A stretch of DNA of 45,539 nucleotides, taken from the IMG/VR virus record IMGVR_UViG_3300045988_099253; one strand, written 5' to 3'. Origin of the DNA: a virus. Of the stretch, positions 18 through 45,539 are shown one piece after another. Position numbers and translations under genes: made by a program. Below the pieces are notes generated by a model. That model did not search any database and was not told the origin of the DNA. It was given only the letters and a program-made list of their open reading frames with translations. Numbering within the stretch: position 1 is the first letter of the stretch; the number at the start of each line of letters is the position of its first letter.

Positions 18-55
18 CCGCATTGCAATCCCAGGTTACTCAGCTAAATAATAAT
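18..55 (+). repeat. 38-bp recombination-site-like inverted repeat (copy in the duplicated segment)
   Basis: CCGCATTGCAATCCCAGGTTACTCAGCTAAATAATAAT, identical to 43899-43936. Confidence 0.85.
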
Positions 56-469
56 TTCAAAGCAAGGGATGCTTCTCTGGAAATTGGCCAGGTTGAGCAA
101 GGGGCTTACGTATATCTCCGCAACAAAGTTACAAATAACTTGCTGATGCTTAGGCTTAATGAGGACGATAAAAAACTTGTATTTAATTCTGAAGTTGATG
201 GACAATGGGGGACTGAAACCGAACTCGTTACAAAGTCCGATTTAGTCAAAAAGGCTACAGTAACACTAAATCTATCAGAGGCTGGGACTGCTAGTATACT
301 AGCAGCAAAACTCGGGATTGTAGTCGGTGTCAATACCAATAATACTAATGCGATTTGCGATTTAATATCTATCAATGATGAATGGTATGTTAGATTTAGG
401 GAAATTACTTCTGACGTACCAATTACAGGTCAAGTTACATTAGATTATTGGTATATACCTGTCCAATAG
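23..469 (+). CDS. Tail-fibre alternative C-terminal cassette 2 (LQSQVTQLNNN-FKARD...), duplicate of 45071-45517
   Basis: Identical 148-aa translation. It begins inside the 38-bp repeat, has no SD or ATG, and has an in-frame stop just upstream. Confidence 0.7.
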   Translation: MQSQVTQLNNNFKARDASLEIGQVEQGAYVYLRNKVTNNLLMLRLNEDDKKLVFNSEVDGQWGTETELVTKSDLVKKATVTLNLSEAGTASILAAKLGIVVGVNTNNTNAICDLISINDEWYVRFREITSDVPITGQVTLDYWYIPVQ

Positions 470-1075: not shown

Positions 1076-1636
1076 TTAATAAGAAATATCCTTTTTAATC
1101 CATAGCGATATCACTTCAACTAATGTGTTTTTTAATGGGGACATGTTTTCATCAAAGCATCTAACAATAATTGTTTTTTGGTATACTGTTGGGATTGATA
1201 ATCTGACATAAACCGAATTTATATATGCTCCAATCAATGAGTATCCTTCTGGTCTATTTATCGTGATATTTCCAGAATCTGATGTATTGCCAGTTGTTTT
1301 ACGGTGAGTAATTAGATCACCTAAATCGGACTTTGTTACGAGTTCATACACCTCCCAGTGATTCAATGCGTACACAAATTCCTTTGGTCGATCATAATAA
1401 GTGATAACCAAAAACGAATTATAATTGCTAAGAGATTGAATTCCCACGGCCAGTGCTCGGCCACCCAAATGGTTCTGAATTTCAACAAGTATCGGCTTAT
1501 TGGTAACAATAGAGGTTTTAAAATCTTCCAGAGCTGTTTGAATGATTTTATCATCATTGAGACTTCCCGTAACATCTCGATGATAAACATCAAATTTTGA
1601 CATATTATTATTTAGCTGAGTAACCTGGGATTGCAA
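1076..1636 (-). CDS. Tail-fibre C-terminal cassette 1 (MSKFDVYH...), here detached from the constant N-terminus; duplicate of 43904-44464
   Basis: The 186-aa translation is identical to the C-terminus of the 43658-44464 product. Confidence 0.7.
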   Translation of the reverse strand: MQSQVTQLNNNMSKFDVYHRDVTGSLNDDKIIQTALEDFKTSIVTNKPILVEIQNHLGGRALAVGIQSLSNYNSFLVITYYDRPKEFVYALNHWEVYELVTKSDLGDLITHRKTTGNTSDSGNITINRPEGYSLIGAYINSVYVRLSIPTVYQKTIIVRCFDENMSPLKNTLVEVISLWIKKDISY

Positions 1637-1641
1637 TGCGG
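1604..1641 (-). repeat. 38-bp inverted repeat copy
   Basis: Reverse complement of 18-55. Confidence 0.85.
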
Positions 1642-1807
1642 GCGGGAATCAGCATTACATGGACCATAAAAATGGAATGTACACTGATAACCGCCCGCTC
1701 CCCGGAGGTGAATGAGATTGTATGGGCGTACCACCGCGCGGGTGCAGAGGCCCCTATATTAATAATAACGCGGCCATAGACCTTTTTGTGACCATTTTGG
1801 AGGAAAA

Positions 1808-2665
1808 ATGAATAAAGAAATTACAAAATTGATAGACCAGGCCAAATCCTGGGATGGATACCTGGAGAAAAAGAGCAACCGGGAGTTGGACGATTTTACG
1901 GCCAACGCCGGAAACAAAAACTATACATGCTTTGCCCGGGATTACCGGGAACATACCGGCCAGAACTTCCAGGGCCAGCCCTGGTGCGCAATGTATGTGT
2001 CTGAGGTATTTGTCCAGGCGTTTGGCCTGGAGGCCGCCAGGCGGCTCCTGGGCGGTGATTTATACCATTACTGCCCAACCGGAGTGGCCCAGTTTAAAAA
2101 GGCAGGCCTGTGGAGTCAGACCCCGGAGCCTGGAGCCGTGATATTTTTTACCAACGGCCAGCGGGCGCACCATACTGGGATTGTGACAGAGGTGACGTCC
2201 ACACGGGTCAAGACCATCGAGGGCAACACGTCTGGCGCATCCGGCGTCATCCCAAACGGCGGCGGGGTCTGCCGGAAGTCCTACCGCAAAGACTACGGCC
2301 AGATCCTGGGATACGGGATCCCGGACTGGAGCCTGGTGGAGCCCGCAAAAAAATCTGGCTGGATCCAGGAGGCCGGGACCTGGAGATACTACCACGGCGA
2401 CACAGGCGAGCCGATACGAAATGACTGGCACCGGGATCCCGATGGCCGGTGGTACTGGTTTGATGGTGCCGGCACAATGGTCACCAACGCCTGGCGGCAG
2501 GATAAGGCCGGGAAGTGGTATTACCTTGGCTCTGATGGTGCAATGGTAATAGGCAGGCTCATGCAGATTGGTGATGAGGTCTTTGCCTTCGGCCCGGATG
2601 GAGCCATGCTGCGGGGAGAGATTAGGTGCTGGGCGGACGAGAGGGGAGCCCTCCGGATGATGTAA
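1808..2665 (+). CDS. Endolysin: CHAP-type peptidase/amidase domain plus C-terminal cell-wall-binding repeats
   Basis: SD GGAGGA upstream. Cys in QPWCAMYV and His in AHHTGIV fit a CHAP fold. Three repeats are of the GxWYY/GxM type (GTWRYYHGDTGEP, GRWYWFDGAGTM, GKWYYLGSDGAM). Confidence 0.85.
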   Translation: MNKEITKLIDQAKSWDGYLEKKSNRELDDFTANAGNKNYTCFARDYREHTGQNFQGQPWCAMYVSEVFVQAFGLEAARRLLGGDLYHYCPTGVAQFKKAGLWSQTPEPGAVIFFTNGQRAHHTGIVTEVTSTRVKTIEGNTSGASGVIPNGGGVCRKSYRKDYGQILGYGIPDWSLVEPAKKSGWIQEAGTWRYYHGDTGEPIRNDWHRDPDGRWYWFDGAGTMVTNAWRQDKAGKWYYLGSDGAMVIGRLMQIGDEVFAFGPDGAMLRGEIRCWADERGALRMM

Positions 2666-2699
2666 AAAGGCGGCAGATTGCCGCCCTCATCTCCTTTTT
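2664..2699. terminator. Bidirectional rho-independent terminator between the endolysin and the convergent minus-strand operon
   Basis: GGCGGC-agatt-GCCGCC hairpin flanked by an A-run on the left and a T-rich tract on the right. Confidence 0.6.
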
Positions 2700-2700
2700 G

Positions 2701-2729
2701 TTGACATTTAACGCAAACTCAAGTATACT
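2701..2729 (+). promoter_or_regulatory. Near-consensus sigma70-type promoter pointing into the 3' end of the minus-strand operon
   Basis: TTGACA, 17-nt spacer, TATACT. Confidence 0.5.
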
Positions 2730-2844
2730 GACCTTGTCAGACGCAGCGGATGCGCTGCTGTTCTGGAGCTGCCAGCAATTCCGGCGGCCACGGATTGAAA
2801 TATTAATGTTAACGCAACAGTGACAGGACTAGGAGGGGGATGCC

Positions 2845-3144
2845 TTAACGGCTTTCCCCTTCAGTCTTTCCATCCCCATAGCACTGATAAAAAGCATCTA
2901 CCAGGCTTGCGATATCTTCCGGATTTAATTTATCAGTGATATCTTTCGGGACCCGATCATAATTGATCCGGAAAAGTTCCTGGTATCTTCCGATTCGGCT
3001 GGCTCTTTTGACCATTTCAAGTTTGTACATTTCTCCCAGCTCTTCCGTGGAGATTTCTCCAGCTTTGACAGCTCTTTTCCCTTCGGCAGTTAAGATTTTC
3101 ATAGCCTCTTCTTTTTTTACTGTTCCAATTCCGTTAATTTTCAT
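2845..3144 (-). CDS. Hypothetical protein, translationally coupled to the upstream XRE regulator
   Basis: 99-aa ORF with a 4-nt ATGA-type overlap with 3141-3359. Confidence 0.6.
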   Translation of the reverse strand: MKINGIGTVKKEEAMKILTAEGKRAVKAGEISTEELGEMYKLEMVKRASRIGRYQELFRINYDRVPKDITDKLNPEDIASLVDAFYQCYGDGKTEGESR

Positions 3145-3359
3145 TCCTGTTCCTCCTTAGCATTTTCTTTTTCAATCAAATCTTCGATTCGGCATCCAAG
3201 CACTATGGACAGCCGATAAACAAATTCGGCGCTGGCTAGATTAATGTTTCTGCGCCCTTGCTCATAGGATTTGATAGATCCTATGCTGACATTTGCTGCC
3301 TGTGCCAGTCGTTGTTGGGTATACCCCTTCTCCTCACGGATCCTTTTTAAATTGGTCAT
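3141..3359 (-). CDS. XRE-family helix-turn-helix transcriptional regulator
   Basis: The KGYTQQRLAQAANVSIGSIKSYEQGRRN motif is typical of HTH_3. Confidence 0.8.
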   Translation of the reverse strand: MTNLKRIREEKGYTQQRLAQAANVSIGSIKSYEQGRRNINLASAEFVYRLSIVLGCRIEDLIEKENAKEEQE

Positions 3360-3370
3360 TTACACTCTCC

Positions 3371-3775
3371 TTAGATTGTTCCCAGCTTGTCACAGTCCAC
3401 GAATTTTGCCCCGTCCCATTTTGCAAATCGGATATAGGATTCCCCGCGGTAGTCCTTCTGGCCGTAGCCATAAACCTGTCCGATTTCCGGGTGGAACACT
3501 ACCAGCTCGCCTTCCTCTCCATGAGTGGCAGAGTATGTTCCGATCTTTTCGTTAAAGTTGTATTTGCCGTGCTCATCCATTTTGCATACCCAAGGGAGGC
3601 TATACCGCCGTGTGTTGTAAGATGCAAAGGTATCAATGACAGCGTTTTCGATTTTTTCAGCCATATTTTTGGCCTCCTTCCATGCTTCTTTCAAAGCGGC
3701 GGAGATTGTAGCCCCTGCTTTTTTAACCAGTTCCCATGCTCTTTTCATAATCTCTGATAAATTGTATTTTTTCAT
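3371..3775 (-). CDS. Hypothetical protein
   Basis: 134-aa ORF with SD GGAGGT upstream of the ATG. The N-terminal LSEIMKRAWELVKK helix is common in mobile-element proteins. Confidence 0.6.
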   Translation of the reverse strand: MKKYNLSEIMKRAWELVKKAGATISAALKEAWKEAKNMAEKIENAVIDTFASYNTRRYSLPWVCKMDEHGKYNFNEKIGTYSATHGEEGELVVFHPEIGQVYGYGQKDYRGESYIRFAKWDGAKFVDCDKLGTI

Positions 3776-3965
3776 TTTGTACTACCTCCATCGCATTTGT
3801 TATGGTCTTATTGTACTACTGTGGTCTCCCAAAGTCTAGTGGCAAAATGCCCAAATTTCGGCAGTATTTTTGTGCATCTTGTGCGACTGTGGTTGCCCTA
3901 AGCCTAGGGAGTAAATTTCTTTTTTTATCCCGCGTGGCGAAGGACGCAATATAAAAAAGAGAGGT

Positions 3966-5540
3966 TTAGAGCTCAACATAAAGGGTCTCCCCGTCCCAGA
4001 CACACTTCTTTATTACTTCTCGGGCGATTGCATTCCTTTCGGCTGCCGTAAACCCATCAAAGTTTCGCATCTTCTCACTGATGATTTTTGCTCGTTCCTG
4101 TGTGGATACCTGGGCGGCAGAGCGTTTCCGTTCCTCCGACGCAGCTATGGTATATTCCCGGTTTAGGGCCTGTATCTCCAGGTCAAACCGTTCCATTTCT
4201 GCGATGATGTATTTTGTCGCAGCGGAGCCAGAGGCCAGGGCCAGCGAGGCCGCCAGCTTCTCGATTTTTGCTTCACAGGATTTTATCTGGCCGGAAATCT
4301 TTTTGGGATCCGGTCTGGCGGCGGTATCCTGGTCCTTCTGGACGTACCGGAGGATGGCGGTATTATCTTGCTCGACTGCGCGGAGGATATTTATGACCTT
4401 TACATCCAGGATCTCGCACTTAATCTGTCTCATATCACAGGCATCCGCGCCTTGTCGTGTCCGTTTGGGGCAGTAATATGCGGAGGAGACGGACCCGTCT
4501 ACTTTTTGCTTGCGGCCGATTGACATGAGCGCGCCGCACTTGCACCGGATCACGCCTTTTAAGAGAGGAGACGGCCAGCGAGCGGTTTTAAAACGCTGAT
4601 TCTGGGCAAACCGGGCCTGTACCGCAAGCCACTTTTCGGCTGGCATAAAGGGCTTGTGGACGCCCAGACACACCCTCCACTGGTCTGGGGGCTGTAATTC
4701 GTGTTTCTTATTTTTCTCCGTGGTGCGGCCATAGACCATGACACCGACGGAGCCGTCCCATTTTTCCCGGGGGGATCCCGGGTCCATGATACATCCTTTG
4801 GCCTGGTAAAAGTCGTATACCTCCGGTGTAGCCTCTGCACAATATGGCATGGTCAAGATTTTGTGGAGCTGCGAAGCAGAGAAAAAGCCGCCCCGCTGCG
4901 TCCGTACGCCTTTGTGCTTAAACTGCGTCTCCATCTTTTGTATGCTGCCGCCAAACTGGATAAACGAGTCAAAAATCCAGGTCACATATCGGGCCCCCTC
5001 CGGATCCGGCGTAATGGCACAGTGCTTTTTCCCGTCCACGATGATCTGGTCCCTTACATATCCGACAGGTGGGTTCCCGCCGACCCAGTAGCCTTTTTTG
5101 GCCAGGCCGATCATGTTGTCGGTCACTCTGGCGGCGATAGTTTCCCTTTCCATCTGGGCAAATACTACAGTCACATACATCATGGCCCGGCCAATGGGTG
5201 TGGATGTGTCAATGTTTTCTTTGATGGATACGAATTTTACCCTGTGTTCCTCCAGAGTGGCGTAGATATTGGCAAAATCCCGGACATCCCTGGACAGCCT
5301 GTCCAGTTGGTAAACGATAAGGACATCTGCGGCGCCGGACCGGATATCCTCCAGAAGCCGCTGTAAGTCCGGGCGGTTGGTGTTGGCCCCGGTAAAATCC
5401 TCATCGGAGTAGGCCCGGAAGTCGTCCACCTGGCCGGAATACTTGACGTTGACGTAGTCCCGGCACATTCGGAACTGGTTGTCCACGGAGTCGGAGCGGT
5501 CAGAGTACACAGATTTACGCCCATAGCAACAAAATATCAT
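3966..5540 (-). CDS. Large serine recombinase (phage integrase)
   Basis: N-terminal resolvase catalytic domain (YGRKSVYSD...DNQ, DRLSRD), recombinase domain (GGNPPVGY), zinc ribbon (CKCG...YYCPKR) and C-terminal coiled coil. SD GGAGGTGG precedes the ATG at 5540. Confidence 0.9.
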   Translation of the reverse strand: MIFCCYGRKSVYSDRSDSVDNQFRMCRDYVNVKYSGQVDDFRAYSDEDFTGANTNRPDLQRLLEDIRSGAADVLIVYQLDRLSRDVRDFANIYATLEEHRVKFVSIKENIDTSTPIGRAMMYVTVVFAQMERETIAARVTDNMIGLAKKGYWVGGNPPVGYVRDQIIVDGKKHCAITPDPEGARYVTWIFDSFIQFGGSIQKMETQFKHKGVRTQRGGFFSASQLHKILTMPYCAEATPEVYDFYQAKGCIMDPGSPREKWDGSVGVMVYGRTTEKNKKHELQPPDQWRVCLGVHKPFMPAEKWLAVQARFAQNQRFKTARWPSPLLKGVIRCKCGALMSIGRKQKVDGSVSSAYYCPKRTRQGADACDMRQIKCEILDVKVINILRAVEQDNTAILRYVQKDQDTAARPDPKKISGQIKSCEAKIEKLAASLALASGSAATKYIIAEMERFDLEIQALNREYTIAASEERKRSAAQVSTQERAKIISEKMRNFDGFTAAERNAIAREVIKKCVWDGETLYVEL

Positions 5541-5602
5541 ATGTCCACCTCCCAAAAAGTGTATAAAAAATACGCCCCTTGCCAGGACGCGCCGGAGATG
5601 GT

Positions 5603-5628
5603 ATAATTCAAGTGTTGAGTTGAATTAT
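5603..5628. other. Candidate attP core: 9-bp perfect inverted repeat ATAATTCAA-n8-TTGAATTAT just upstream of the integrase
   Basis: Seen directly. It lies in the int-proximal intergenic region of an excised or circular genome. Confidence 0.25.
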
Positions 5629-5664
5629 CTTTCCGGGTAAACCTGGTAAGAGAATCTATCTAAA

Positions 5665-5699
5665 AGCCGTTCCGGTTGCTGCCGGGGCGGTTTTTAACA
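5665..5699 (-). terminator. Rho-independent terminator after the 5707-6333 gene
   Basis: GCCGTTCCGG/CCGGGGCGGT stem (two G-U pairs) followed by a U-run on the minus strand. Confidence 0.45.
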
Positions 5700-5706
5700 T
5701 TGATTG

Positions 5707-6333
5707 CTATTTAAGACCAAACTGTCCTTTGGAATAAAGCTTTCCATTCATAAAATAAAGATTCGCGTTTGATCCGATATCATATCCGTACCACAAATAA
5801 GCGCTTGCATTAGTGTCTGCAATGTCTGTCTCCACCATTGGCTCCCCTTCCTCGCCTATAATTTTTACACATTCTTCATATGTCATTCCTATTTGACATT
5901 GATTGTACTTTTCTAGTGTTATTTTATTTCCGAAAATATTTCCACCATCTAATACAACCCACATGAATGCAAAAACCAAACCAAAGCAAGTAACAAATGG
6001 AAGAATCTTCTTTCGTGTAGAATATAACGCAAAGCGTTCATTCCTTCCCATTTTTTCTGAACATTCCTTCAATATTTCAGTATCATATTTTTGAGATATG
6101 AAACTTACAGCTCTGCTCATAGGTTCATTTGATTTTTTTCCAAAAATGAAAGTATGAATATCACCATCATTAAGTTTAAATCTCATAAAACCGAAATTTG
6201 CATTGTCAGCGAATTGGTATTCGATAGATTTTATTTCATCATAGTAAAATATCTTATCTCGTTCCAGAAATTCCTCAATAGTTATTTTTTCTTTACCAAC
6301 ATATAATGTTTGCCCGTTCCCCTTTATACTCAT
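5707..6333 (-). CDS. Membrane-anchored protein with a DUF3862-like C-terminal domain. It sits in the moron/superinfection-exclusion position between attP and the repressor.
   Basis: Central TM helix (ILPFVTCFGLVFAFMWVVL). The C-terminal ITLEKYNQCQIGMTYEECVKIIG...YFMNGKLYSKGQFGLK pattern fits DUF3862. AT-rich. Confidence 0.65.
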   Translation of the reverse strand: MSIKGNGQTLYVGKEKITIEEFLERDKIFYYDEIKSIEYQFADNANFGFMRFKLNDGDIHTFIFGKKSNEPMSRAVSFISQKYDTEILKECSEKMGRNERFALYSTRKKILPFVTCFGLVFAFMWVVLDGGNIFGNKITLEKYNQCQIGMTYEECVKIIGEEGEPMVETDIADTNASAYLWYGYDIGSNANLYFMNGKLYSKGQFGLK

Positions 6334-6358
6334 TTTTCTCTCCTATAAAATAAAAATA

Positions 6359-6982
6359 TTATTTTACATCACTTTGAAATGCCATTGCTTTGCCTAAAAC
6401 ATGCACCTGGTTTAATTCGTTCCCAGAAAAAATCAGATCCTCATAGGCCGGATTCTCCGGTTTCAGAATCAACACCCCCTTATCTGGATAGTAATAGAGC
6501 CGTTTCAGTGTAGCTTCGCTGTCGTTGTTCACTACAACAGCGGCAATCTCTCCGTTTTCCACCATATCCTGTTTTCTTATAAATACTATGTCTCCGTCTA
6601 AAATTCTAGCCCCAACCATGCTGTCACCGGAGGCCCTTAAGCAGAAGTCTGCATTAATGTTTGTGCCCGCCATGACATAACTCTCCCTATCTTCATTTGT
6701 GTATTTTGGCTCTCCACAAGCGATTTCTCCCAACATTGGAAATCGTTTCAGCTCTATTGGGAAGATATTTGGGAATGTAGGTGGTTCTGGGTCTTGCCCG
6801 GTCATTAAGTAATCAACTGAAACACCAAGATAGTCAGCAATCTGGTGAATCTTTGTTACATTTGGTGTGCTTTTGCCTAATTTGCTTATATATCCTTTTC
6901 CAAAGTTCAAGTCAGTTTCTACTTTATTCATGGAAACGTTACTCTGTTTGCACAACTGTTGAATGCGTTCTTTTAAGTCCAT
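6359..6982 (-). CDS. CI/LexA-like phage repressor (XRE HTH + S24 peptidase)
   Basis: N-terminal HTH. C-terminal GDSM...ATLKRL Ser/Lys dyad typical of S24 autopeptidases. Confidence 0.85.
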   Translation of the reverse strand: MDLKERIQQLCKQSNVSMNKVETDLNFGKGYISKLGKSTPNVTKIHQIADYLGVSVDYLMTGQDPEPPTFPNIFPIELKRFPMLGEIACGEPKYTNEDRESYVMAGTNINADFCLRASGDSMVGARILDGDIVFIRKQDMVENGEIAAVVVNNDSEATLKRLYYYPDKGVLILKPENPAYEDLIFSGNELNQVHVLGKAMAFQSDVK

Positions 6983-7025
6983 TCTGCGCTCCTTTCAAAA
7001 CATCTGAAAAAATCGCAAAAACCTA

Positions 7026-7053
7026 TTGACAAACTGAAAATATCGCGTATAAT
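7026..7053 (+). promoter_or_regulatory. Rightward early promoter (PR-like)
   Basis: TTGACA, 16-nt spacer, TATAAT. Confidence 0.6.
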
Positions 7054-7133
7054 AATATTATGAGTTCTGAAAAAATCGCAAAACAATGGCGATATAAATA
7101 TTTGTCGGTTCTGTGATTTTGTGTGGTAGCTTG

Positions 7134-7162
7134 ATTATAGAATATTTTCAGAGTTTAGTCAA
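7134..7162 (-). promoter_or_regulatory. Leftward promoter toward the repressor (PRM-like)
   Basis: Minus strand reads TTGACT, 17-nt spacer, TATAAT. Confidence 0.5.
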
Positions 7163-7193
7163 TATCATTTTGTGATTTTTTCAGAATAGAAAT

Positions 7194-7409
7194 GTGGAAA
7201 GGAGGGGCTACTTGAAAGAATATTCAACACTTAAAGAGAGAGTTTCAAAGATTGCAAAAGAAAAAAATATTCCTCTCTATAAATTAGAGGAGGAAGCGAA
7301 TATCTCAAGAGGTAGCATTTCGAAGTGGGATGATATTTCCCCTTCCTTTGAAAAGGTATGCGCGGTAGCGAAAGTTTTAAAAGTCAATATAAATAAGTTG
7401 ACGGAATAA
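7194..7409 (+). CDS. Cro-like XRE HTH regulator (probable true start is TTG at 7212)
   Basis: NISRGSISKWDD HTH motif. SD GGAAAGGAGGGG lies 5 nt upstream of TTG 7212. Divergent from the repressor. Confidence 0.75.
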   Translation: MERRGYLKEYSTLKERVSKIAKEKNIPLYKLEEEANISRGSISKWDDISPSFEKVCAVAKVLKVNINKLTE

Positions 7410-7421
7410 GGGAGGTGAGTA

Positions 7422-7796
7422 ATGAAGGTACATATTAACGACATTAAGCCGGGAACGAAAATTGACCCGTCTTGGGAAATCATTGAGGATGAGCCAGAAG
7501 AGCTCGAAAGGTCGAAAGAACCTTGCAAATCAGCAGATTCGGACTTGAGTATTTTAAATAAATACAAGCCTGGAGACAAAATCGCCCCAGAAGATGTCGA
7601 GGCATTTACGAAAGCGGTTGAAGCAGAACAGAGACATATTTGCCCTAGTATAGACCGTTTCCAGAGTATTTCTCAGTTGTGCGATTATGCGATTCGAGAC
7701 TCAGAAAGGGCAGTAAAACTGTCACTGTTCTGTCTGATAATATCAACGGCTTGCCTAGGCTCAACCATTGCATTGTTTATACTTTTAATGCAATAG
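7422..7796 (+). CDS. Hypothetical protein with a C-terminal TM helix
   Basis: SD GGGAGGTGA; 124-aa ORF. Confidence 0.55.
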   Translation: MKVHINDIKPGTKIDPSWEIIEDEPEELERSKEPCKSADSDLSILNKYKPGDKIAPEDVEAFTKAVEAEQRHICPSIDRFQSISQLCDYAIRDSERAVKLSLFCLIISTACLGSTIALFILLMQ

Positions 7797-8058
7797 CGAT
7801 AATGCTGACAACCAGTGCGGCAAACGAAACGATGGTTGTTACCCAAAAGCGAAAGAGATCTTCTTTATAGATTTTCATTTCGACTTCGCCTTCTTGGGTG
7901 ACAATATAACCCCCAAATCCGAGAACATGACATTTATAAATATATCCTTTTTGGATAAGGAAATAATATAAATCGCGATTACGGTCAAAGTCCTTTGCAG
8001 TTGTGCCGTTTGAACGGTATATGGATTTTAATTTTTTGTACTGTTTTCTGGTTATCAT
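7777..8058 (-). CDS. Hypothetical membrane protein, convergent with and overlapping 7422-7796
   Basis: SD GGAGGGA upstream of the ATG at 8058. C-terminal TM helix. Confidence 0.5.
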   Translation of the reverse strand: MITRKQYKKLKSIYRSNGTTAKDFDRNRDLYYFLIQKGYIYKCHVLGFGGYIVTQEGEVEMKIYKEDLFRFWVTTIVSFAALVVSIIAIALKV

Positions 8059-8317
8059 CGAAAAAACTCCCTCCATTGGGAGTATAGCACATGACGAAGT
8101 AAACGCAAGTATTTTTTAGGAGAGGAGGCGGAAGGAACTGTTTATTTCAAGAAAAGAGCTGCAAGAAATGAGAAAAGAAATCGCTGACCTCAAGCAAAAA
8201 ACTGAGAGTCAGCAAAAAAAGATTCAGCTTTTAAAAGAAGCGATTGTCACGGGAAAGAAAAACGGATATGTTTCATAGGTTTTTTAATATTTTCTTGAAT
8301 AGGAGGTGAGAAAGTGA

Positions 8318-8599
8318 ATGATGAACGCAATGGAATTTAATAAAGCCGTCAGCAAGCACTGCAAAGATATGTCTGGGGATTGCTGCAAATGCGACTTACG
8401 GCTTTATTGTTATCTATCGCCAAGCGAAAGATGTGATGAGTTGATTAGTCTGGTTATTAGTTTTTTGCATAACTGCACGGAAAACCAAATTCCGTATTCC
8501 CATCACAGTGCGGCTTCATATCCGTGTATTTGTGATATGGACATGAGCAACGCACTAGGCGCTTCTTGCCATCAACAATCTCATAATCCTCAAAAATAG
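8318..8599 (+). CDS. Cys-rich small protein. The N-terminal ~50 aa are paralogous to the 8798-9124 ORF. The 3' extent is uncertain.
   Basis: SD AGGAGGTG. CCKCDLRLYCYLSP resembles CHVCAIRDFCYSPP in the paralog. Confidence 0.4.
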   Translation: MMNAMEFNKAVSKHCKDMSGDCCKCDLRLYCYLSPSERCDELISLVISFLHNCTENQIPYSHHSAASYPCICDMDMSNALGASCHQQSHNPQK

Positions 8600-8672
8600 T
8601 TATGTGTTTGTGGATTTTATGGCAATGATAGAGTCTTGATGATAATTCCAATATATAACCTCCTTTCTGCAT
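8457..8672 (-). CDS. Possible His/Cys-rich small protein, antisense to 8318-8599 (probable start TTG at 8651)
   Basis: AAAGGAGGT SD upstream of the TTG. It competes with the plus-strand ORF, and only one of the two is likely to be real over the overlap. Confidence 0.3.
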   Translation of the reverse strand: MQKGGYILELSSRLYHCHKIHKHITIFEDYEIVDGKKRLVRCSCPYHKYTDMKPHCDGNTEFGFPCSYAKN

Positions 8673-8884
8673 ACTCGGGTATGGCAGTACCCTGTGGCTA
8701 AAGAATAGGAGAATATACAGGAAATGTCAATGGGAGTTTGGAGTTCCAGTTGGAGTAAATCGAGGCAAACGCAAGTATTTTTTAGGAGGTAATACAGATA
8801 GAAGTAACGGAATTCTTCAAAAGACTTGAAAAGTTTTGTTCAGATAAGCCGGAAAAGATTTCAGATGACATTACAAAATGTCAT

Positions 8885-9124
8885 GTGTGTGCAATAAGGG
8901 ATTTTTGTTATAGCCCACCAGACCATTTTAGAGAGAATTGTAATCTCAGAGAAGTTATTTGGTTTGTTGAAAACTTATCAGAAAAGAAAGGGAGTGAAAG
9001 CATACCTGGACATAATTTCAATCATTTTACAGGAAAGAAAAAGCCGTTTTTAATACAAAAACGGAAGAAAAAGGATAAAAAGAAGCGAGTTCACCAGAAC
9101 AAATATGGGGAGGTGAAAGGGTGA
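8885..9124 (+). CDS. Cys-rich small protein, paralog of 8318. The frame is open from 8786, with no canonical start before 8885.
   Basis: The shared 22-bp leader and SD lie at 8767-8790. The conserved paralogous residues lie upstream of the first GTG. Confidence 0.35.
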   Translation: MCAIRDFCYSPPDHFRENCNLREVIWFVENLSEKKGSESIPGHNFNHFTGKKKPFLIQKRKKKDKKKRVHQNKYGEVKG

Positions 9125-9461: not shown

Positions 9462-9575
9462 ATGTATATTGACCCGTTTTGGGCCGGGGTGGCTGCTACG
9501 CTCCTGGCAGAGGTGGCAGCAATCACAGCATTAGTTATCATCAAGGTAAAAAAAGAAATCGGAGGTAAAGAGTAA
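9462..9575 (+). CDS. Small single-TM peptide (37 aa)
   Basis: SD AGGAGGAAA; hydrophobic core AGVAATLLAEVAAITALVII. Confidence 0.4.
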   Translation: MYIDPFWAGVAATLLAEVAAITALVIIKVKKEIGGKE

Positions 9576-10483
9576 TGTGCCAGTTTAAGAGCGGGATTAT
9601 CTTAAAAAATAAAATCGTTGTCGCTCCAGGAAAGGATGACAGCCATTCAAACCTCCTGGAATCCCTCGGAATCCAGGACGACTACATCGGAGCATCTAAG
9701 ACGTTTGTACGAGCGGAGTTGGTTCCAAAAAATAGTGAGTGGTGGATCAGCCCAGAAGAACATCCGGAAAAATGGACGTTTGTCGTTGACCAGGACATTG
9801 TGCCGGATTGGTTTTGCAGAGAAGAATCAGAAAAAGAATTTCGGGCGGCTGTCTGCGAATGGTGGAAATCTCATGTACTGGTAGACCAGAAACTGGGAAA
9901 ACTGGAATCTGGATACTATAAATTGAAGCGCTGTGAGGTTAATAAGCTACTTAACGATGTAATGGCTGATCTGTATGATTCCCAGGTCGGCAAGATGTGG
10001 GGAAGCTCCCAGGTCGGCGAGATGCGGGGAAGATCCCAGGTCGGCGTGATGTGGGGAAGATCCCAGGTCGGCGTGATGTGGGAAAGATCCCAGGTCGGCG
10101 CGATGTGGGAAAGATCCCAGGTCGGCAAGATGCAAGGAAGCTCCCAGGTCGGCGTGATGTGGGGAAGCTCCCAGGTCGGCGAGATGCTGGAAAGATCCCA
10201 GGTCGGCAAGATGCGGGAAAGATCCCAGGTCGGCGTGATGTGGGAAAGATCCCAGGTCGGCGTGATGTGGGAAAGCTCCCAGGTCGGCAAGATGCGGGAA
10301 AGCTCCCAGGTCGGCAAGATGTGGGGAAGCTCCCAGGTCGGCGAGATGCGGGAAAGCTCCCAGGTCGGCGAGATGTGGGAAAGATCCATAGCGAAAGACT
10401 ATAAAAATTATCCTAAAATTAAAATCTGGGTATCCCCAGAAGGAAACTTTGAAATGCTTACATATATAAATAAAACTAAATAA
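9575..10483 (+). CDS. Repeat protein: conserved N-terminal domain (MCQFKSGIILK...) followed by 15 nonapeptide SQVGxMxxx repeats
   Basis: The ATG overlaps the upstream stop. The architecture resembles a Firmicutes phage family with xSxxVxxIxx-type 9-aa repeats. Confidence 0.7.
   Translation: MCQFKSGIILKNKIVVAPGKDDSHSNLLESLGIQDDYIGASKTFVRAELVPKNSEWWISPEEHPEKWTFVVDQDIVPDWFCREESEKEFRAAVCEWWKSHVLVDQKLGKLESGYYKLKRCEVNKLLNDVMADLYDSQVGKMWGSSQVGEMRGRSQVGVMWGRSQVGVMWERSQVGAMWERSQVGKMQGSSQVGVMWGSSQVGEMLERSQVGKMRERSQVGVMWERSQVGVMWESSQVGKMRESSQVGKMWGSSQVGEMRESSQVGEMWERSIAKDYKNYPKIKIWVSPEGNFEMLTYINKTK
9980..10384 (+). repeat. 15 tandem copies of a 27-bp unit TCCCAGGTCGGCnnGATGnnGGnAAnn
   Basis: Counted directly. 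All three forward frames and two reverse frames stay open across it. Confidence 0.95.
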
Positions 10484-11132: not shown

Positions 11133-11272
11133 GCAGACGAAGAAATGGAACCAACCAGGCAATGATTCAGCTTGGCCTTAATCGGTACAAGCTTGGAAAG
11201 AAAAAGCGCCCTGGAGCGGTAACTCCGGTGGGCGCAGAAAAAATAACTTACACAGGTAAGTATAGCAGATAG
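11129..11272 (+). CDS. Small basic hypothetical protein (47 aa)
   Basis: ATGA overlap with the upstream gene; SD GAGGAGGAAG. Confidence 0.35.
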   Translation: MSRRRNGTNQAMIQLGLNRYKLGKKKRPGAVTPVGAEKITYTGKYSR

Positions 11273-11286
11273 GAGAGGGGATATCA

Positions 11287-11454
11287 ATGGCAAGTAAAGA
11301 GATTCTGACGTTTTTGTCAGAGGAGGAGCATGAGTATATCGTTGGCCTTGTACAGCGGGATATCTTTCATGAGAGGACAAGCGAGCCGATTCCGATTATA
11401 GACAAATGCCGGATCTGGATAAAACTGGAGGATGCGAAAAAGAAAAATGAATAA
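11287..11454 (+). CDS. Small hypothetical protein (55 aa)
   Basis: SD GGAGAGGGG upstream of the ATG. Confidence 0.4.
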   Translation: MASKEILTFLSEEEHEYIVGLVQRDIFHERTSEPIPIIDKCRIWIKLEDAKKKNE

Positions 11455-11626: not shown

Positions 11627-11772
11627 TTGATGGAACGAAACTGGTTGGATGGCTTAGGGGGCAGCAGTCAATTACTCCCTTATCTTACGCCGAAAAAGTT
11701 TTATATGAAAAAATAATCCATCATGTCGTAAATATGATGGAGGAAGAGGGTGTTAAAAACGGAGAACGGTAA
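11608..11772 (+). CDS. Small hypothetical protein (54 aa)
   Basis: SD GGAGG 7 nt upstream of the ATG. Confidence 0.4.
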   Translation: MLEHKVIDGTKLVGWLRGQQSITPLSYAEKVLYEKIIHHVVNMMEEEGVKNGER

Positions 11773-12550
11773 GAAGTTAGAATTTAGGCTGCTGAATGCA
11801 GATGAGATTGATTGCCGCATCGCAATGGTGAAAGAATCTGGAGTGTCAATTCTGCTATATAAAGATGCGAGAGTAGACCAGAATATTCTTGATGAGGTTA
11901 TTGGCCCTATGAATTGGAGCCGGTCTCATCAACTGATTGGCGACAGGCTATATTGTACAGTCAGTATTAAAGACAACGAAAGCGGAGAATGGGTTTCTAA
12001 GCAAGATGTTGGAACAGAGAGCTACACAGAAAAAGAAAAGGGACAGGCTTCTGATAGTTTTAAGCGAGCGTGCTTTAATTGGGGGATTGGCAGAGAGTTG
12101 TATACAGCCCCTTTCATCTGGATCCCTTCTAGCGTATGCAAGATATCTAAAGGACAAAATGGTAGATTTTCTTGCTTTGAGAATTTTTTTGTATGTGATA
12201 TTGGGTACGATGATAACAGGCGAATAAATCTCTTGGAAATCGCAAATGGAAATGGGAAAATCATGTACTCTATGGGAGATAAACCAAAAGAAGAATCGAA
12301 TCCTAAAATGGCAAAGTTAGAAGCTAAGCATATCAATGAATTATATATGCAACTGCAAAGAACTGGAGTGGGATTATCTGGACTCCTTAAAGAGTATCAT
12401 GTGAACGATATCCATGACCTTACTATTATGGATTATGAAAAAGCCATAGACAGATTAAAATCCAGGCCAGACAAGCCTATTGATCTTAACACAATTCCTC
12501 CAGAAAATTCAGATGATCCAACCCTCCCTTGGAATAATCCACAGAGGTGA
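11750..12550 (+). CDS. Rad52/Sak-family single-strand annealing protein
   Basis: The motif KEKGQASDSFKRACFNWGIGRELY and the DARVDQNILDEVIGPMNW pattern are typical of phage Rad52-like SSAPs. Confidence 0.75.
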   Translation: MLKTENGKKLEFRLLNADEIDCRIAMVKESGVSILLYKDARVDQNILDEVIGPMNWSRSHQLIGDRLYCTVSIKDNESGEWVSKQDVGTESYTEKEKGQASDSFKRACFNWGIGRELYTAPFIWIPSSVCKISKGQNGRFSCFENFFVCDIGYDDNRRINLLEIANGNGKIMYSMGDKPKEESNPKMAKLEAKHINELYMQLQRTGVGLSGLLKEYHVNDIHDLTIMDYEKAIDRLKSRPDKPIDLNTIPPENSDDPTLPWNNPQR

Positions 12551-13077
12551 TCCGAATGGAATGTACTGGAAAGCTAAAGAGCATTTCTCAAGATTGGATG
12601 AGCGGAAAGTGGGAAATCACATTTTCTACTGATGAGAACATTACTGGAGGAATAGAAAATATTAAGGACAAGCTGCTTCGTATTTGCGTAAAACAGCATC
12701 GTGAAAGGCGTAGCCTGGATGCCAACGCATATGCCTGGGTGCTGATGCAAAAGATTGCAGAGGCCATACGTACTGACAAGTGGTCCGTTTATTTGATGAT
12801 GCTGGAGCGATACAGCCCTGTTTTTACCCATATCATCGTAAGGCCAGAGGCGGTAGAGCGTGTCAAGGGCGAGTGGAGGACTGTTAAAGTCCTCGGCCCC
12901 ATACAGGTCAACGGAAGCACCGGGATCCAGCTGCAATGCTATTTTGGCTCCAGTACCTTTGACTCTAAGGAGATGGCCAGTTTTATTGACGGAATCGTAT
13001 CGGAGTGCAAGGAAATGGGGATTGAGACCTTGCCGCCGGATGAAATTGAACGAATGAGAAGGGAGTGGGGAATCTGA
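12547..13077 (+). CDS. NinB/Orf-like recombination mediator (putative)
   Basis: RSLDANAYAWVLMQKIAE and GSSTFDSKEMASFIDGI parallel lambda NinB RSLDQNRKLW... and GQSTSRMRVGEFAELL. Adjacent to the SSAP. Confidence 0.45.
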   Translation: MIRMECTGKLKSISQDWMSGKWEITFSTDENITGGIENIKDKLLRICVKQHRERRSLDANAYAWVLMQKIAEAIRTDKWSVYLMMLERYSPVFTHIIVRPEAVERVKGEWRTVKVLGPIQVNGSTGIQLQCYFGSSTFDSKEMASFIDGIVSECKEMGIETLPPDEIERMRREWGI

Positions 13078-21382: not shown

Positions 21383-21562
21383 ATGAGAGAAGAAACTATG
21401 ATTGTCATGACATCGGATGACGTATTTCAAGCAATCTTTGAATATCTGGATGGAAGAGGTATAGATTGTAGTGACGGACGTGTGGACTTTTGCCCCTTCA
21501 CACAAAATGGAGAGTTCGATTTTGAATGTAAGATAACAGGAGTAAAGAAAAAATATGCTTGA
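21383..21562 (+). CDS. Hypothetical protein
   Basis: SD GAGGAGGA upstream of the ATG at 21383. Confidence 0.5.
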   Translation: MREETMIVMTSDDVFQAIFEYLDGRGIDCSDGRVDFCPFTQNGEFDFECKITGVKKKYA

Positions 21563-22361
21563 CCCTCATTATCTCCAGCAAATAGCGGACGGGGCGGAAA
21601 ACATTGCTTCCCAGCTCCATGAGTACATAATCCGCCAGATCGTAGACCGCATGATGATACGCATCGGGCGGGGGGACGATTATCTCCTTACCTCCTCCGA
21701 TGCGTGGCGCATCCAGGTGTTACAGGACAGCGGATACCTTTTACAGGACATCACGGCGGAGCTGACGAAGTACACGAAGCGGCAGGAGAAGGAAATCAAG
21801 GCGGCTATGGAAGAGGCCGGAGTCAAGGCCCTGGAATACGATGACAAGATATACCGGGCCGCCGGGCTGTCTCCCATGTCGCTGACACAGTCCCCGGCGC
21901 TGATCCGGCTCATGGAGCGGAACTACAACGCCACCCTGGGAGAGTGGCGGAACATGACCCGCAGCACCGCAGAAGCCGCACAGAAGCTTTTTCTGAACGA
22001 ATGTGATTTTGCCTATAACAAAGTCATGAGCGGGGCCATAAGCTACTCACAGGCCGTCAGAGAGGCCGTGGAGAGCGTTGCAATCGGCGGAGTGTATGTG
22101 GACTACCCTTCCGGTCACCGAGACACCATAGAGGTCGCCACAGCGCGGGCCGTGCGTACCGGGATAGCCCAGGCGTGTGCAGATATAACGCTTGCCAGAA
22201 TGAAAGAAATGGGCTGTTCACTGGTCTTGACATCGGCGCATATAGGCGCACGTACAGGGTCAGGAGGGCCAGATCATACAAACCACCTATACTGGCAAGC
22301 CGGAATATATTCTGTTGACTGGGACAAGGTTGACAAGGCAAAGAAAAAAGAGGGTGGTTAA
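21555..22361 (+). CDS. Minor capsid/head morphogenesis protein, N-terminal fragment of a split gene
   Basis: Phage_min_cap2-like pattern up to SAHIGAR...HLYWQAGIYS. The ORF then runs into AT-rich inserted DNA and stops. Confidence 0.7.
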   Translation: MLDPHYLQQIADGAENIASQLHEYIIRQIVDRMMIRIGRGDDYLLTSSDAWRIQVLQDSGYLLQDITAELTKYTKRQEKEIKAAMEEAGVKALEYDDKIYRAAGLSPMSLTQSPALIRLMERNYNATLGEWRNMTRSTAEAAQKLFLNECDFAYNKVMSGAISYSQAVREAVESVAIGGVYVDYPSGHRDTIEVATARAVRTGIAQACADITLARMKEMGCSLVLTSAHIGARTGSGGPDHTNHLYWQAGIYSVDWDKVDKAKKKEGG

Positions 22362-22639: not shown

Positions 22640-23320
22640 ATGACATTTGAGGAGTTTTGCGTAGAAAATGGAAAAAGGCAAAAAGAAGAAGTACGTCAGA
22701 CTGGAAAATACTCTCATGGAATGGCTGGAACAAGGCTTTATAGAATATGGTCTGGAATGAAAATAAGGACTTCAGAAAATGCTCAGTCGCATAATAAAGT
22801 TGCATATTTTGATAGAGGAATAAAGGTATGCGAAGAATGGGAAAGATTTGAAGCGTTTTTATTTTGGGCTTATATAAGCGGATACAATAAAGGCTTAACG
22901 ATAGACAGGATAGACGTTGACAAAGGATATTCCCCTGATAATTGCCGTTGGGTTCCGCTGAAATGGCAAAATAATAATAAACAGAGTAGTTGGAAGATAG
23001 AGTATCAAGGACAGACAAAAACTGTAGGAGAATGGGAACATTTTTTCGGTGTTCGGCGCGAATATATCAGAGGAAAACTTAATCATGGCTGGACGTTTGG
23101 AGAAATTGTAGAAAATATAAAAAATCCCACAACGCTGAACAAGAACAATAAAAGCGGAATAAAAGGAGTTCTGTTTGACAATAACCATTCAAAATGGAGG
23201 GCTTATATTTCCGTAGGTGGGAAGCGTGTGGAAGATAGAGTTTTCCGAACAAAGGAAGAAGCTATAGAAGCAAGAAAACAAATGGAGTTAAGATATTGGG
23301 GTTATACCAATATTGAATAA
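22640..23320 (+). CDS. HNH-type homing endonuclease with a C-terminal AP2 DNA-binding domain
   Basis: TRLYRIWSGMKIR..., LTIDRIDVDKGYSPDNCRWV, and the AP2-like SGIKGV....SKWRAYISVGGKRV....F.TKEEAIEARK. Confidence 0.7.
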   Translation: MTFEEFCVENGKRQKEEVRQTGKYSHGMAGTRLYRIWSGMKIRTSENAQSHNKVAYFDRGIKVCEEWERFEAFLFWAYISGYNKGLTIDRIDVDKGYSPDNCRWVPLKWQNNNKQSSWKIEYQGQTKTVGEWEHFFGVRREYIRGKLNHGWTFGEIVENIKNPTTLNKNNKSGIKGVLFDNNHSKWRAYISVGGKRVEDRVFRTKEEAIEARKQMELRYWGYTNIE

Positions 23321-31402: not shown

Positions 31403-32041
31403 ATGAACTACCGAAACAGCCGGAACTATGACAACCTGGAACGTCGGATATTTGATGGAGTGGGGGAGTACGGCATACCGCAGATAGAGCCAACAGCCTA
31501 TGAAGGCGGCTGTGACTGGATTGGATTCAATTATGCGAAATCCTGTAAAAATCCATCTGAAAAGGGCGTCCATTTCTTCCTTGATGATTATATTTTCCTA
31601 AGGTTATGGACGTGCATTGACCGATACATACCGATGTTGCAGAAATTCCGCTATGTAATGTCCCCGGACTTCTCCACATACACTGACTTTCCCAAAGCTA
31701 TGCAGATATATAACCATTACCGGAAACACTGGTGCGGCGCATACCTGCAAGAGGTAGGAATACAGGTTATCCCGACCATCTCATGGAGTACACCAGATTC
31801 CTTTGAATGGTGTTTTGACGGAGAACCAGAGGGTGCCGTCGTGGCGGTGTCTTCTGTCGGCTGTATGAACAGCAAGGAAAAGAAAGCACTGTTTCTGGCG
31901 GGATATGAGGAGATGGTGCGGCGATTACACCCGGAAACCATTATCTTTTACGGCTCCGTGCCGGATGAGTGCATGGGGAATATTGTGAGGATAAAAGCAT
32001 TTCATGAGAAGTTTAAGGAGGCGAAATGCAATGGGTGGTAG
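31403..32041 (+). CDS. DUF4417 domain protein
   Basis: GVHFFLDDYIF..LW......Y...L..F..V.SPDFS.Y.DFP.A.QIYN.YR..W.GAY.Q..GI.VIPT..W pattern. Confidence 0.65.
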   Translation: MNYRNSRNYDNLERRIFDGVGEYGIPQIEPTAYEGGCDWIGFNYAKSCKNPSEKGVHFFLDDYIFLRLWTCIDRYIPMLQKFRYVMSPDFSTYTDFPKAMQIYNHYRKHWCGAYLQEVGIQVIPTISWSTPDSFEWCFDGEPEGAVVAVSSVGCMNSKEKKALFLAGYEEMVRRLHPETIIFYGSVPDECMGNIVRIKAFHEKFKEAKCNGW

Positions 32042-43651: not shown

Positions 43652-43663
43652 AGGAGATTGACT

Positions 43664-44464
43664 ATGGAAGAGAATAAAAAAGACGTATTACCGCTCGAGG
43701 GAGAACCGCTGACCGCGCCGCAGATATCTGAACCGGTGGTGAACGCCCTGGCCGCCGCGCTGAGTAAGATTGAGACGTATGTGCCTACACAGTACATTAA
43801 TGATGGGCCGCCGGACATTGACGCTGACCATCTCAACCACGCAGAACAGGCTATCATGCGGGTCACGAATTTAGCCAACGGAGCCGCCGATGCAATCTCC
43901 GCATTGCAATCCCAGGTTACTCAGCTAAATAATAATATGTCAAAATTTGATGTTTATCATCGAGATGTTACGGGAAGTCTCAATGATGATAAAATCATTC
44001 AAACAGCTCTGGAAGATTTTAAAACCTCTATTGTTACCAATAAGCCGATACTTGTTGAAATTCAGAACCATTTGGGTGGCCGAGCACTGGCCGTGGGAAT
44101 TCAATCTCTTAGCAATTATAATTCGTTTTTGGTTATCACTTATTATGATCGACCAAAGGAATTTGTGTACGCATTGAATCACTGGGAGGTGTATGAACTC
44201 GTAACAAAGTCCGATTTAGGTGATCTAATTACTCACCGTAAAACAACTGGCAATACATCAGATTCTGGAAATATCACGATAAATAGACCAGAAGGATACT
44301 CATTGATTGGAGCATATATAAATTCGGTTTATGTCAGATTATCAATCCCAACAGTATACCAAAAAACAATTATTGTTAGATGCTTTGATGAAAACATGTC
44401 CCCATTAAAAAACACATTAGTTGAAGTGATATCGCTATGGATTAAAAAGGATATTTCTTATTAA
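43664..44464 (+). CDS. Phase-variable tail fibre: 91-aa constant N-terminus currently fused to cassette 1 (MSKFDVYH...)
   Basis: SD AAAGGAG. DADHLNHAEQAI fibre motif. The 38-bp inverted repeat lies in frame at codons for SALQSQVTQLNNN. Confidence 0.8.
   Translation: MEENKKDVLPLEGEPLTAPQISEPVVNALAAALSKIETYVPTQYINDGPPDIDADHLNHAEQAIMRVTNLANGAADAISALQSQVTQLNNNMSKFDVYHRDVTGSLNDDKIIQTALEDFKTSIVTNKPILVEIQNHLGGRALAVGIQSLSNYNSFLVITYYDRPKEFVYALNHWEVYELVTKSDLGDLITHRKTTGNTSDSGNITINRPEGYSLIGAYINSVYVRLSIPTVYQKTIIVRCFDENMSPLKNTLVEVISLWIKKDISY
43899..43936 (+). repeat. Left 38-bp inverted repeat (inside the fibre ORF)
   Basis: CCGCATTGCAATCCCAGGTTACTCAGCTAAATAATAAT. Confidence 0.9.
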
Positions 44465-44467
44465 TAA

Positions 44468-44974: not shown

Positions 44975-44982
44975 AAATTAAT

Positions 44983-45522: not shown

Positions 45523-45539
45523 GCGGGAATCAGCATTAC

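Follow-up and report, generated by a model that had tools for sequence, protein, structure and literature searches.

A tail-fibre inversion switch without a recombinase of its own in a temperate phage that encodes a single large serine integrase

The viral DNA analysed in this study, IMG/VR record IMGVR_UViG_3300045988_099253 (45,539 nt, the whole of which is referred to as the window), consists of one circular genome of about 43,881 nt plus terminal redundancy and belongs to a temperate, siphovirus-like phage. Two of its elements are considered here, namely an invertible tail-fibre segment bounded by perfect 38-nt inverted repeats, and a gene for a large serine recombinase (LSR), which an earlier note on this DNA had raised as one possible catalyst of the fibre inversion. 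The probable host is a Lachnospiraceae member of the human gut, judging from the endolysin with its CHAP domain and choline-binding repeats, the gut-metagenome sources of the sequences, and the LSR relatives in Agathobacter, Blautia and Lachnospiraceae metagenome-assembled genomes. An annotated cultured relative was not found when positions 1600-9000 were compared with GenBank phages by megablast, which returned only two short matches to unannotated gut phages. The features of the locus, in the order of the circular map, are the following.

43658-43936, plus strand: N-terminal, constant portion of the tail-fibre gene, with the left repeat as its last 38 nt; the complete open reading frame (ORF), 43658-44464, continues into cassette A
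43899-43936, plus strand: left 38-nt inverted repeat, CCGCATTGCAATCCCAGGTTACTCAGCTAAATAATAAT, encoding ALQSQVTQLNNN; the same arm occurs again at 18-55
43937-45484, no strand: invertible interior of 1548 nt with cassettes A, B and C; inverted copy at 56-1603
ending at 44464, plus strand: cassette A, read through from the constant fibre part
44510-44974, plus strand: cassette-like ORF B, the third, without a repeat of its own (from its translation)
45071-45517, minus strand: cassette C (from its translation)
45485-45522, minus strand: right 38-nt inverted repeat; second copy at 1604-1641
1-1658, no strand: terminal redundancy of the contig, equal to the invertible segment in opposite orientation, both sides being joined to the downstream flank Y (self-comparison)
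1642-1807, plus strand: flank Y, the spacer from the right repeat to the endolysin, without a recombinase gene; every related contig has the same first 17 nt
1808-2665, plus strand: endolysin (CHAP and choline-binding repeats; Pfam)
2845-3775, minus strand: three small genes between endolysin and attP (a 99-aa ORF, an HTH_3 protein at 3141-3359 and a Gp111-like protein at 3371-3775), no recombinase among them
3915-3964, no strand: attP of the LSR, an imperfect dyad, TTTTTTTATCCCGCGTGGC[GA]AGGACGCAATATAAAAAA, with the crossover dinucleotide GA at 3939-3940
3966-5540, minus strand: LSR, the phage integrase and sole recombinase gene of the genome (Pfam, six-frame searches with Gin and LSR seeds, position at the prophage end)
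11750-13077, plus strand: homologous-recombination module, comprising an Erf-like single-strand annealing protein (SSAP, 11750-12550) and a NinB/Orf mediator (12547-13077)

The window contains the fibre segment in both orientations. Positions 1-1641 are the exact reverse complement of 43899-45539 (1641 nt, 100% identity), and the 1548-nt block with its inverted repeats is present in one copy per orientation, both copies being followed by the same downstream flank. Direct repeats connect 1604-1658 with 45485-45539 (55 nt) and 18-55 with 43899-43936, at a spacing of 43881. The 55-nt direct overlap suggests an assembly k of 55, which exceeds the repeat length, so that both sets of junctions should come from reads. 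Four copies of the 38-nt repeat occur in the window where none would be expected by chance, corresponding to two per genome unit. Alternative fibre C-termini are thereby fused, through inverted repeats, to one constant N-terminus, which is 94-98% identical in seven related viral contigs with differing C-termini. A shufflon has more than two crossover sites; here there are two repeat copies per genome unit, and cassette B has none. The cassettes A, B and C match no Pfam or PHROG family. About 25 related contigs share the order fibre, repeat, cassettes, repeat, 166-nt spacer and endolysin, and their cassette repertoire is very diverse.

The LSR reading frame runs on the minus strand from an ATG at 5538-5540 to a stop codon at 3966-3968 and encodes 524 aa, an identical product being called on 22 public contigs. 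It comprises the Pfam domains Resolvase (PF00239, 1.4e-33), Recombinase (PF07508, 1.7e-12) and Zn_ribbon_recom (PF13408, 4.7e-8), of which PF00239 spans residues 10-156 of the 529-aa version with a TTG start that was scanned, and a YGRKS serine motif lies at the N-terminus. The closest solved relatives are the catalytic domain of the TP901-1 integrase (3.5e-17) and Gin. A resolvase catalytic domain with its nucleophilic serine is therefore combined with C-terminal recombinase and zinc-ribbon domains, as is characteristic of large serine recombinases. The description given in the earlier note, a 524-aa LSR located downstream of the right repeat after the endolysin and three small genes, agrees with the map, in which the right repeat ends at 1641 and is followed by the endolysin and the small genes at the coordinates listed above.

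Likewise, its statement that the genome has no other recombinase was borne out. In a Pfam hmmscan of all ORFs of at least 100 aa in six frames, together with a non-overlapping gene set of at least 40 aa, no second Resolvase, Phage_integrase or transposase family was detected in the window, and PF00239, PF07508 and PF00589, the families the note had proposed for this search, pointed to no recombinase besides the LSR. When all stop-to-stop segments of at least 30 aa were searched by phmmer with Mu Gin, the LSR catalytic domain and lambda Int as seeds, the LSR was the only match (4e-19 with Gin; next best E >1). The lambda Int seed is too insensitive, having missed the tyrosine recombinase of the sister phage L126 introduced below, so that the search for tyrosine recombinases in the window relies on Pfam and on the Xer-like L126 enzyme as seed, which likewise gave no match in the window. 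Comparison of 20 unannotated proteins with PHROGs added the Erf-like SSAP, the NinB/Orf mediator and an HNH endonuclease, and no recombinase. A small serine invertase of about 190 aa, which the note had considered as a possible cryptic ORF, was absent from all six frames of the window and from roughly 150 related loci scanned. The genome of about 43.9 kb thus contains no recombinase gene other than the LSR.

The LSR is the integrase of this phage. In six contigs (attR: L003, L004, L006, L010, L011 and L012), phage identity ends 27 nt past the LSR stop codon and gives way to bacterial genes (amylase, GlgB, a two-component system), while the other prophage end (attL) is seen in two large host contigs (L096 and L091). 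The GA at 3939-3940, located 26 nt past the LSR stop codon, is common to the attR and attL junctions and is therefore the crossover dinucleotide; attB reads ...GCGTATGAGACCG[GA]CCGTATAGTGATCG.... The prophage has the LSR at one end and the fibre, the endolysin and the three small genes at the other. In about 36 relatives (45-98% identity), the LSR-proximal half-site follows directly after the stop codon and is strongly conserved as CTCACTTTTTTAT-NN-TGCG-NNN-TC. A short attP forming an imperfect dyad, a 2-bp crossover shared with attB, and hybrid sites flanking the integrated copies are all present, as in other LSR integrases. The enzyme is thus an ordinary integrase, recombining the attP next to its own gene with an attB that lies in a gene of its Lachnospiraceae host. 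It shares its domain architecture with the large serine integrases of TP901-1, A118, phiC31, Bxb1 and the Roseburia phage Shimadzu, and, as in these, attP abuts the int gene and integration occurs into a host gene; in Shimadzu, attP lies inside int (10.1101/575076). Compared with them, the LSR of the window shows nothing unusual in itself. Throughout the loci L013-L084, a conserved half-site opens attP right after the LSR stop codon (3 to 30 nt). On the host side, many prophage junctions of the LSR family have similar halves (…CGCATNCGNAGAGC…GGATCAG…), a similarity suggesting that the family may target one conserved host gene across Lachnospiraceae. A 226-aa ORF at the prophage junction matched no Pfam family.

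With the integration sites in hand, the fibre repeat was compared with them, and no half-site shared between the 38-bp repeat and attP, as the earlier note had proposed to look for, emerged from the position weight matrix (PWM) or from direct comparison. The PWM of the LSR half-site scores 39.6 bits at attP (3939-3963, minus strand) versus at best -10 bits within 8 nt of any repeat arm, the latter ranking 1080 of 91,030 positions (z 2.4). The four att half-sites, placed at all possible centres in the repeat, showed identity at background level, and the conserved T-run and TGCG motifs of the LSR half-site are absent from the repeat. An in-register ATTGC match between the repeat and one half of attP was dropped, as these bases are not conserved in the LSR family. 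Since no LSR half-site is present at the repeat, the switch site is not an LSR site.

The inversion of the fibre segment is real, recent, precise and site-specific. Contig L005, whose LSR is 100% identical, ends exactly at the inner edge of the repeat, and its 42,350 nt differ by no more than 17 nt from the length of a genome unit lacking the invertible interior, the outcome that an assembly fork would give, which supports inversion. Several cassette types adjoin the fibre gene in one contig and the endolysin in another. The crossover could be mapped with L096, a prophage on a host contig of 156.8 kb, and the viral contig L156 of 13.3 kb. Alignments of their two flanks span 3006 and 2174 nt and contain 5 mismatches each, a number equal to the 5 differences between the arms, and the 600 nt per side immediately outside the repeats are 100% identical. 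The 898-nt block from repeat to repeat is 100% identical but inverted, and these two-cassette segments hold no additional gene. The arms are 88% identical and differ at repeat positions 11, 18, 21, 33 and 35; as all five differences moved with the cassettes, the exchange took place within repeat positions 1-10 (CCGCATTGCA), a 10-nt stretch with unrelated flanking sequence beyond one end and a mismatch beyond the other. Exchange by RecA or an SSAP needs far more identity than 10 nt, and the tens of nucleotides of uninterrupted identity that mark homologous inversion are lacking in the L096/L156 exchange; this inversion event was therefore site-specific. Moreover, no run of identity between the L096/L156 arms exceeds 11 nt, so that an assembler cannot have mis-oriented this pair. 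Inversion thus happens in nature, with its crossover within 10 nt. A dyad on the fibre side, GATGCAAT-CTCCGC-ATTGCAATC, is centred at repeat positions 1-2, and the endolysin side is without a matching outer half. A crossover at the repeat edge with unrelated outer flanks fits tyrosine shufflon sites and serine-invertase half-sites equally.

Sister systems carry an Xer-like tyrosine recombinase of their own. L126 is a different phage with a related endolysin C-terminus, and its fibre cluster contains four repeat copies at the same point of the fibre protein. Its repeat is identical to that of the window at 16/20 nt in the overlap, encoding TQLYSD as opposed to TQLNSD/NNN in the lineage of the window, and one of its cassettes resembles a cassette of that lineage. 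Inside the L126 cluster lies the gene for a 331-aa Xer-like tyrosine recombinase (PF00589, 9e-36; XerA/C/D-type NCBIfam matches), a relative of which is encoded by 22 further viral contigs. In about 14 of these, repeats of 16 nt or more lie nearby, many of which share the core ATAGTGATTT. L043 combines a 63%-identical LSR with a tyrosine recombinase that has fibre-cassette repeats on its flanks, and its gene content shows that a phage with this kind of LSR encodes a dedicated recombinase for its fibre cassettes. A tyrosine recombinase in or near the cluster, as is typical of shufflon and Rin systems, is thus found in L126 and L043 and is missing from the window.

Other relatives lack such a gene. 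L123 and L125 contain the L126 site core, with repeats of only 21 nt, and no recombinase in the fetched locus. In the more distant L069 (fibre N-terminus 54% identical), the repeats measure 85 nt (10361-10445 / 11235-11319, 99% complementary), and the end of the invertible fibre block coincides with the homologous ELN junction; the endolysin comes next, and no recombinase gene lies between fibre and endolysin. These three loci indicate that recombinase-less versions are common in this phage group. The AGTGAT-type arms of the window lineage contain ACTCAGCTAAATAGTGATTTA, which is 20/21 identical to the site of the recombinase-bearing phage L175, a likeness that would suit trans action by L175-type enzymes.

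Taken together, the phage possesses a fibre inversion switch without a recombinase of its own. We lean, at slightly better than even confidence, towards an orphan switch that would depend on a recombinase supplied in trans, either by the host or by a co-resident prophage. According to this proposal, the fibre segment would be a site-specific inversion switch separate from the LSR, in which exchange takes place at the outer edge of the repeat (CCGCATTGCA) and each cassette takes the conserved inner repeat sequence along with it. As the lineage would have no gene for the flipping enzyme, a foreign recombinase would act on the sites, most plausibly in a lysogen, and this enzyme could be either a tyrosine recombinase of the shufflon/Rin-like kind or a small serine invertase. 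The proposal follows from the single recombinase gene and its role as integrase, from a real site-specific inversion and the missing LSR site at the repeat, from the dedicated enzymes of relatives and the orphans with a known cognate (L123 and L125), and from a bifidophage precedent described below. A host-encoded invertase acting in trans had been among the options of the earlier note and remains the best fit, except that nothing points to the Hin type, the sister phages using Xer-like tyrosine recombinases.

Several observations weigh against trans action. No candidate for the cognate enzyme was found, and exact searches with the repeat in IMG/VR, JGI metagenomes and GTDB yielded only orphan copies of the lineage, CRISPR spacers and chance matches, none beside a recombinase. 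With regard to L175-type enzymes, the arms of the window itself read AAATAATAAT at the position of the sister core, and the mapped crossover lies 20-30 nt further out; either two different activities act on the repeats or the inner similarity reflects only shared coding sequence (LNSD). The crossover mapping depends on one clean natural event, L096/L156. The outer 21 nt of the repeat, which bear the crossover, are lineage-specific, and the lineage with this outer repeat carries the LSR at 96-100% identity in all contigs long enough to show it, a co-occurrence that is, weakly, also compatible with a role of the LSR. Finally, about 60% of the phage proteins have no assigned function, which leaves room for an unrecognised phage-encoded enzyme. 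As to the searches, an exact search of 185,579 GTDB genomes with the 22-nt repeat core gave no match. L153, L154 and L158, the only additions from a search of IMG/VR with a 17-mer of the outer repeat, consist of unrelated sequence and were judged chance matches, and L088, L090 and L104, examined as a possible new context of the repeat, turned out to hold CRISPR spacers.

A dual role of the LSR, that is, integration plus reversible fibre inversion at a second pair of sites without a recognisable attP/attB half-site, was the first possibility named in the earlier note and seems unlikely to us. Each site would consist of an outer half that differs between fibre and endolysin flank and a shared inner half, so that products equal substrates and no directionality factor would be needed for reversal. 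The LSR is indeed the only recombinase encoded, the lineage-specific outer repeat is always accompanied by it, and repeat identity begins within the 10-nt crossover stretch while the outer flanks differ. The same layout, with repeat identity up to the crossover and differing outer flanks, is known from serine-recombinase sites such as hixL/hixR. However, neither the family PWM nor the four att half-sites reveal an LSR half-site at or near the repeat, the form CTCACTTTTTTAT-NN-TGCG-NNN-TC does not occur in it, and L043 keeps a separate tyrosine recombinase for its fibre cassettes despite its related LSR. A dual role would also need synapsis of like or hybrid sites without a directionality factor, of which we know no example among LSRs (phiC31, Bxb1 and A118 integrases). 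The reading of the LSR as the invertase is therefore not supported; if true, it would mean one enzyme for lysogeny and host-range switching. We regard as very unlikely that the inversion is driven by homology, RecA or the Erf-like SSAP with NinB acting on the 38-nt perfect repeats, for example during replication. This proposal of the earlier note is contradicted by the L096/L156 crossover, in which arms of 88% identity exchanged in a 10-nt stretch, below the needs of RecA or an SSAP, even though the phage encodes an SSAP with a mediator, the window arms are perfect over 38 nt, and recombinase-less relatives tend to have longer repeats, up to the 85 nt of L069. The short repeats of L123 and L125 argue in the same direction, as does the recombination module, which is not conserved together with the switch, L003-type relatives having ERF and Gp157 instead. 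The SSAP, previously labelled Rad52-like, is better described as Erf-like (PHROG 1097, 2.5e-18; the mediator belongs to PHROG 72, 3.8e-20), the Pfam Rad52 match being weak (E 0.0076).

The chance that the inversion is carried out by a phage protein from a family so far not known to include recombinases appears similarly small, if anything a little smaller. Many ORFs have no Pfam or PHROG function, but no such gene adjoins the segment in the roughly 25 related contigs, and the inverting two-cassette segments of L096/L156 contain no extra gene. The known inversion systems all rely on enzymes of the serine, tyrosine or DEDD (Piv) class, of which the searches detected no member beyond the LSR. It is highly improbable, lastly, that there is no inversion at all and that the double orientation is an assembly artefact at a short repeat. 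Perfect 38-nt repeats can mislead assemblers at k <=38; the 55-nt terminal overlap, however, would indicate a k of 55, longer than the repeat, with junction k-mers from reads, an independent sample (L005) forks at the same point, and the L096/L156 arms are too dissimilar for such an error, as described above.

In comparison with known systems, the segment resembles the G segment of Mu with Gin, as well as P1 Cin, e14 Pin and p15B Min, in that a constant fibre N-terminus is fused via an inverted repeat to alternative C-terminal cassettes, the silent cassette faces inwards, and the switch is situated at the end of the tail module. In Mu, however, the gene for the 193-aa serine invertase lies directly after the segment boundary, where the window has a 166-nt spacer followed by the endolysin; the adjacent invertase of about 190 aa that marks the Hin/Gin/Cin/Pin systems is absent here, while gin was found adjacent in the Mu control. 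The host of the window phage is moreover a Firmicute, and no Fis-type enhancer is expected. A likeness to the Hin/Gin consensus (AAACC-AA-GGTTT versus AATCC-CA-GGTTA) was dropped because it covers repeat positions 10-21, outside the mapped crossover interval.

Parallels also exist among gut temperate phages. The Rin shufflon of Bifidobacterium prophages (PMC6109161) and the sister clusters (L126/L160-L180 and L043) likewise invert C-terminal receptor-binding cassettes at short repeats within the coding sequence, at the junction of constant and variable parts. They differ in the armless XerD-like tyrosine recombinase in or beside the cluster, which the window lacks, and, in the case of the sister clusters, in the shared site core ATAGTGATTT, mutated to AAATAATAAT in the window arms, and in the single mapped crossover of the window lineage, which falls 20-30 nt further out. 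For the bifidophages 689b-1 and Bb423phi2, a tail-gene inversion of about 500 bp without a flanking recombinase has been described and an invertase acting in trans proposed (PMC6109161), which is the one earlier proposal of an orphan switch served in trans. Their likeness to the window is the tail-gene inversion without a flanking recombinase, whereas the host belongs to another phylum, the repeat has only 8 bp (CAGGGTTA), and that study includes neither integrase-site mapping nor a comparison with recombinase-bearing sisters. The R64 shufflon provides a parallel for the site itself. Its Rci sfx sites are asymmetric, the conserved core and inner arm forming the repeat and the outer arm being variable (PMC11852207, PMC4176322), and this layout is matched by the repeat of the window lineage, in which the mapped crossover lies at the outer edge and the flanks beyond it are unrelated. 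R64, in contrast, is a plasmid pilus-adhesin system of enterobacteria with Rci encoded beside the shufflon, and a sequence likeness to sfx (GTGCCAATCCGGTAC versus TTGCAATCCCAGGTTAC; sfx from PMC4176322) needs indels and was treated as coincidence.

Within the cassettes, a KSDL motif is found in all three (window 221-245, 796-818 and 1321-1345, with copies at 44195-45319), and a 25-nt inverted repeat of 96% identity connects cassettes A and C (221-245/1321-1345). This repeat was considered as a second crossover site and is better explained as a conserved KSDL module junction. A cassette of L100 and cassette C are about 95% identical as far as VTKSDL and unrelated beyond, which indicates that KSDL marks a module junction and that distal domains are swapped between phages. 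In L105/L152 (IMGVR_UViG_3300045988_184399), only 433 nt lie between the arms and the endolysin-side cassette is a short ORF (NNYMVNSARLIV…), probably degenerate; this variant looks like a deletion derivative of the switch.

A link to the host is provided by CRISPR spacers. L088 (1380-1560), and likewise L090 and L104, contains a type I-C CRISPR locus with Cas1, Cas4, Cas7, Csd1, Cas5d and Cas3 by Pfam. One L088-type spacer equals the fibre inverted repeat (GCAGTCCCAGGTTACTCAGCTAAATAGTGATTTAC; window 18-55), giving two targets per phage genome, and the next spacer encodes IDPARTPRAYK, a peptide of the phage large terminase (window about 19700).

Elsewhere in the window, ORF 9575-10483 (plus strand) encodes a 302-aa early-region protein without a Pfam or PHROG match, in which about 20 head-to-tail units of 27 nt (9926-10465) form a 9-aa repeat, SQVGxMWxx; the array in L095 is shorter (215 aa). 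An operator-like 31-nt inverted repeat (84%; 7003-7033 / 7155-7185) is located between a divergent CI-like repressor gene (6359-6982, minus strand) and a Cro-like HTH gene (7194-7409, plus strand). The slot from the LSR to the repressor is variable, with a BLIP/DUF3862-like gene in the window (5707-6333) and, in L007/L008/L095 and L009/L011, either a 464-aa unknown protein or an Mrr_cat/FtsK_gamma nuclease-like one. An HNH endonuclease gene (22640-23320) directly follows the gene of the minor capsid protein (Phage_min_cap2, 21555-22361), and a DUF4417/nuclease-like gene (31403-32041) is situated among structural genes, after the capsid and before the tail module or the reverse; both have the appearance of insertions into otherwise syntenic modules.

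Inversion switches of tail fibres set the host range of phages, and in the textbook examples the invertase is encoded by the element itself. Here, in contrast, a family of Lachnospiraceae gut phages keeps an active switch and a very large cassette repertoire without the enzyme, whereas its sisters carry an Xer-like recombinase in the cluster. The analysis also yields a mapped attP/attB pair and a family-wide consensus of the att half-site for a group of gut LSR integrases, enzymes of interest as tools for genome engineering. Should the flip depend on an enzyme of the host or a co-resident element, the plasticity of the host range would be decided by the other mobile elements of the lysogen, and such a dependency would matter for the prediction of host range from phage genomes and for phage engineering.

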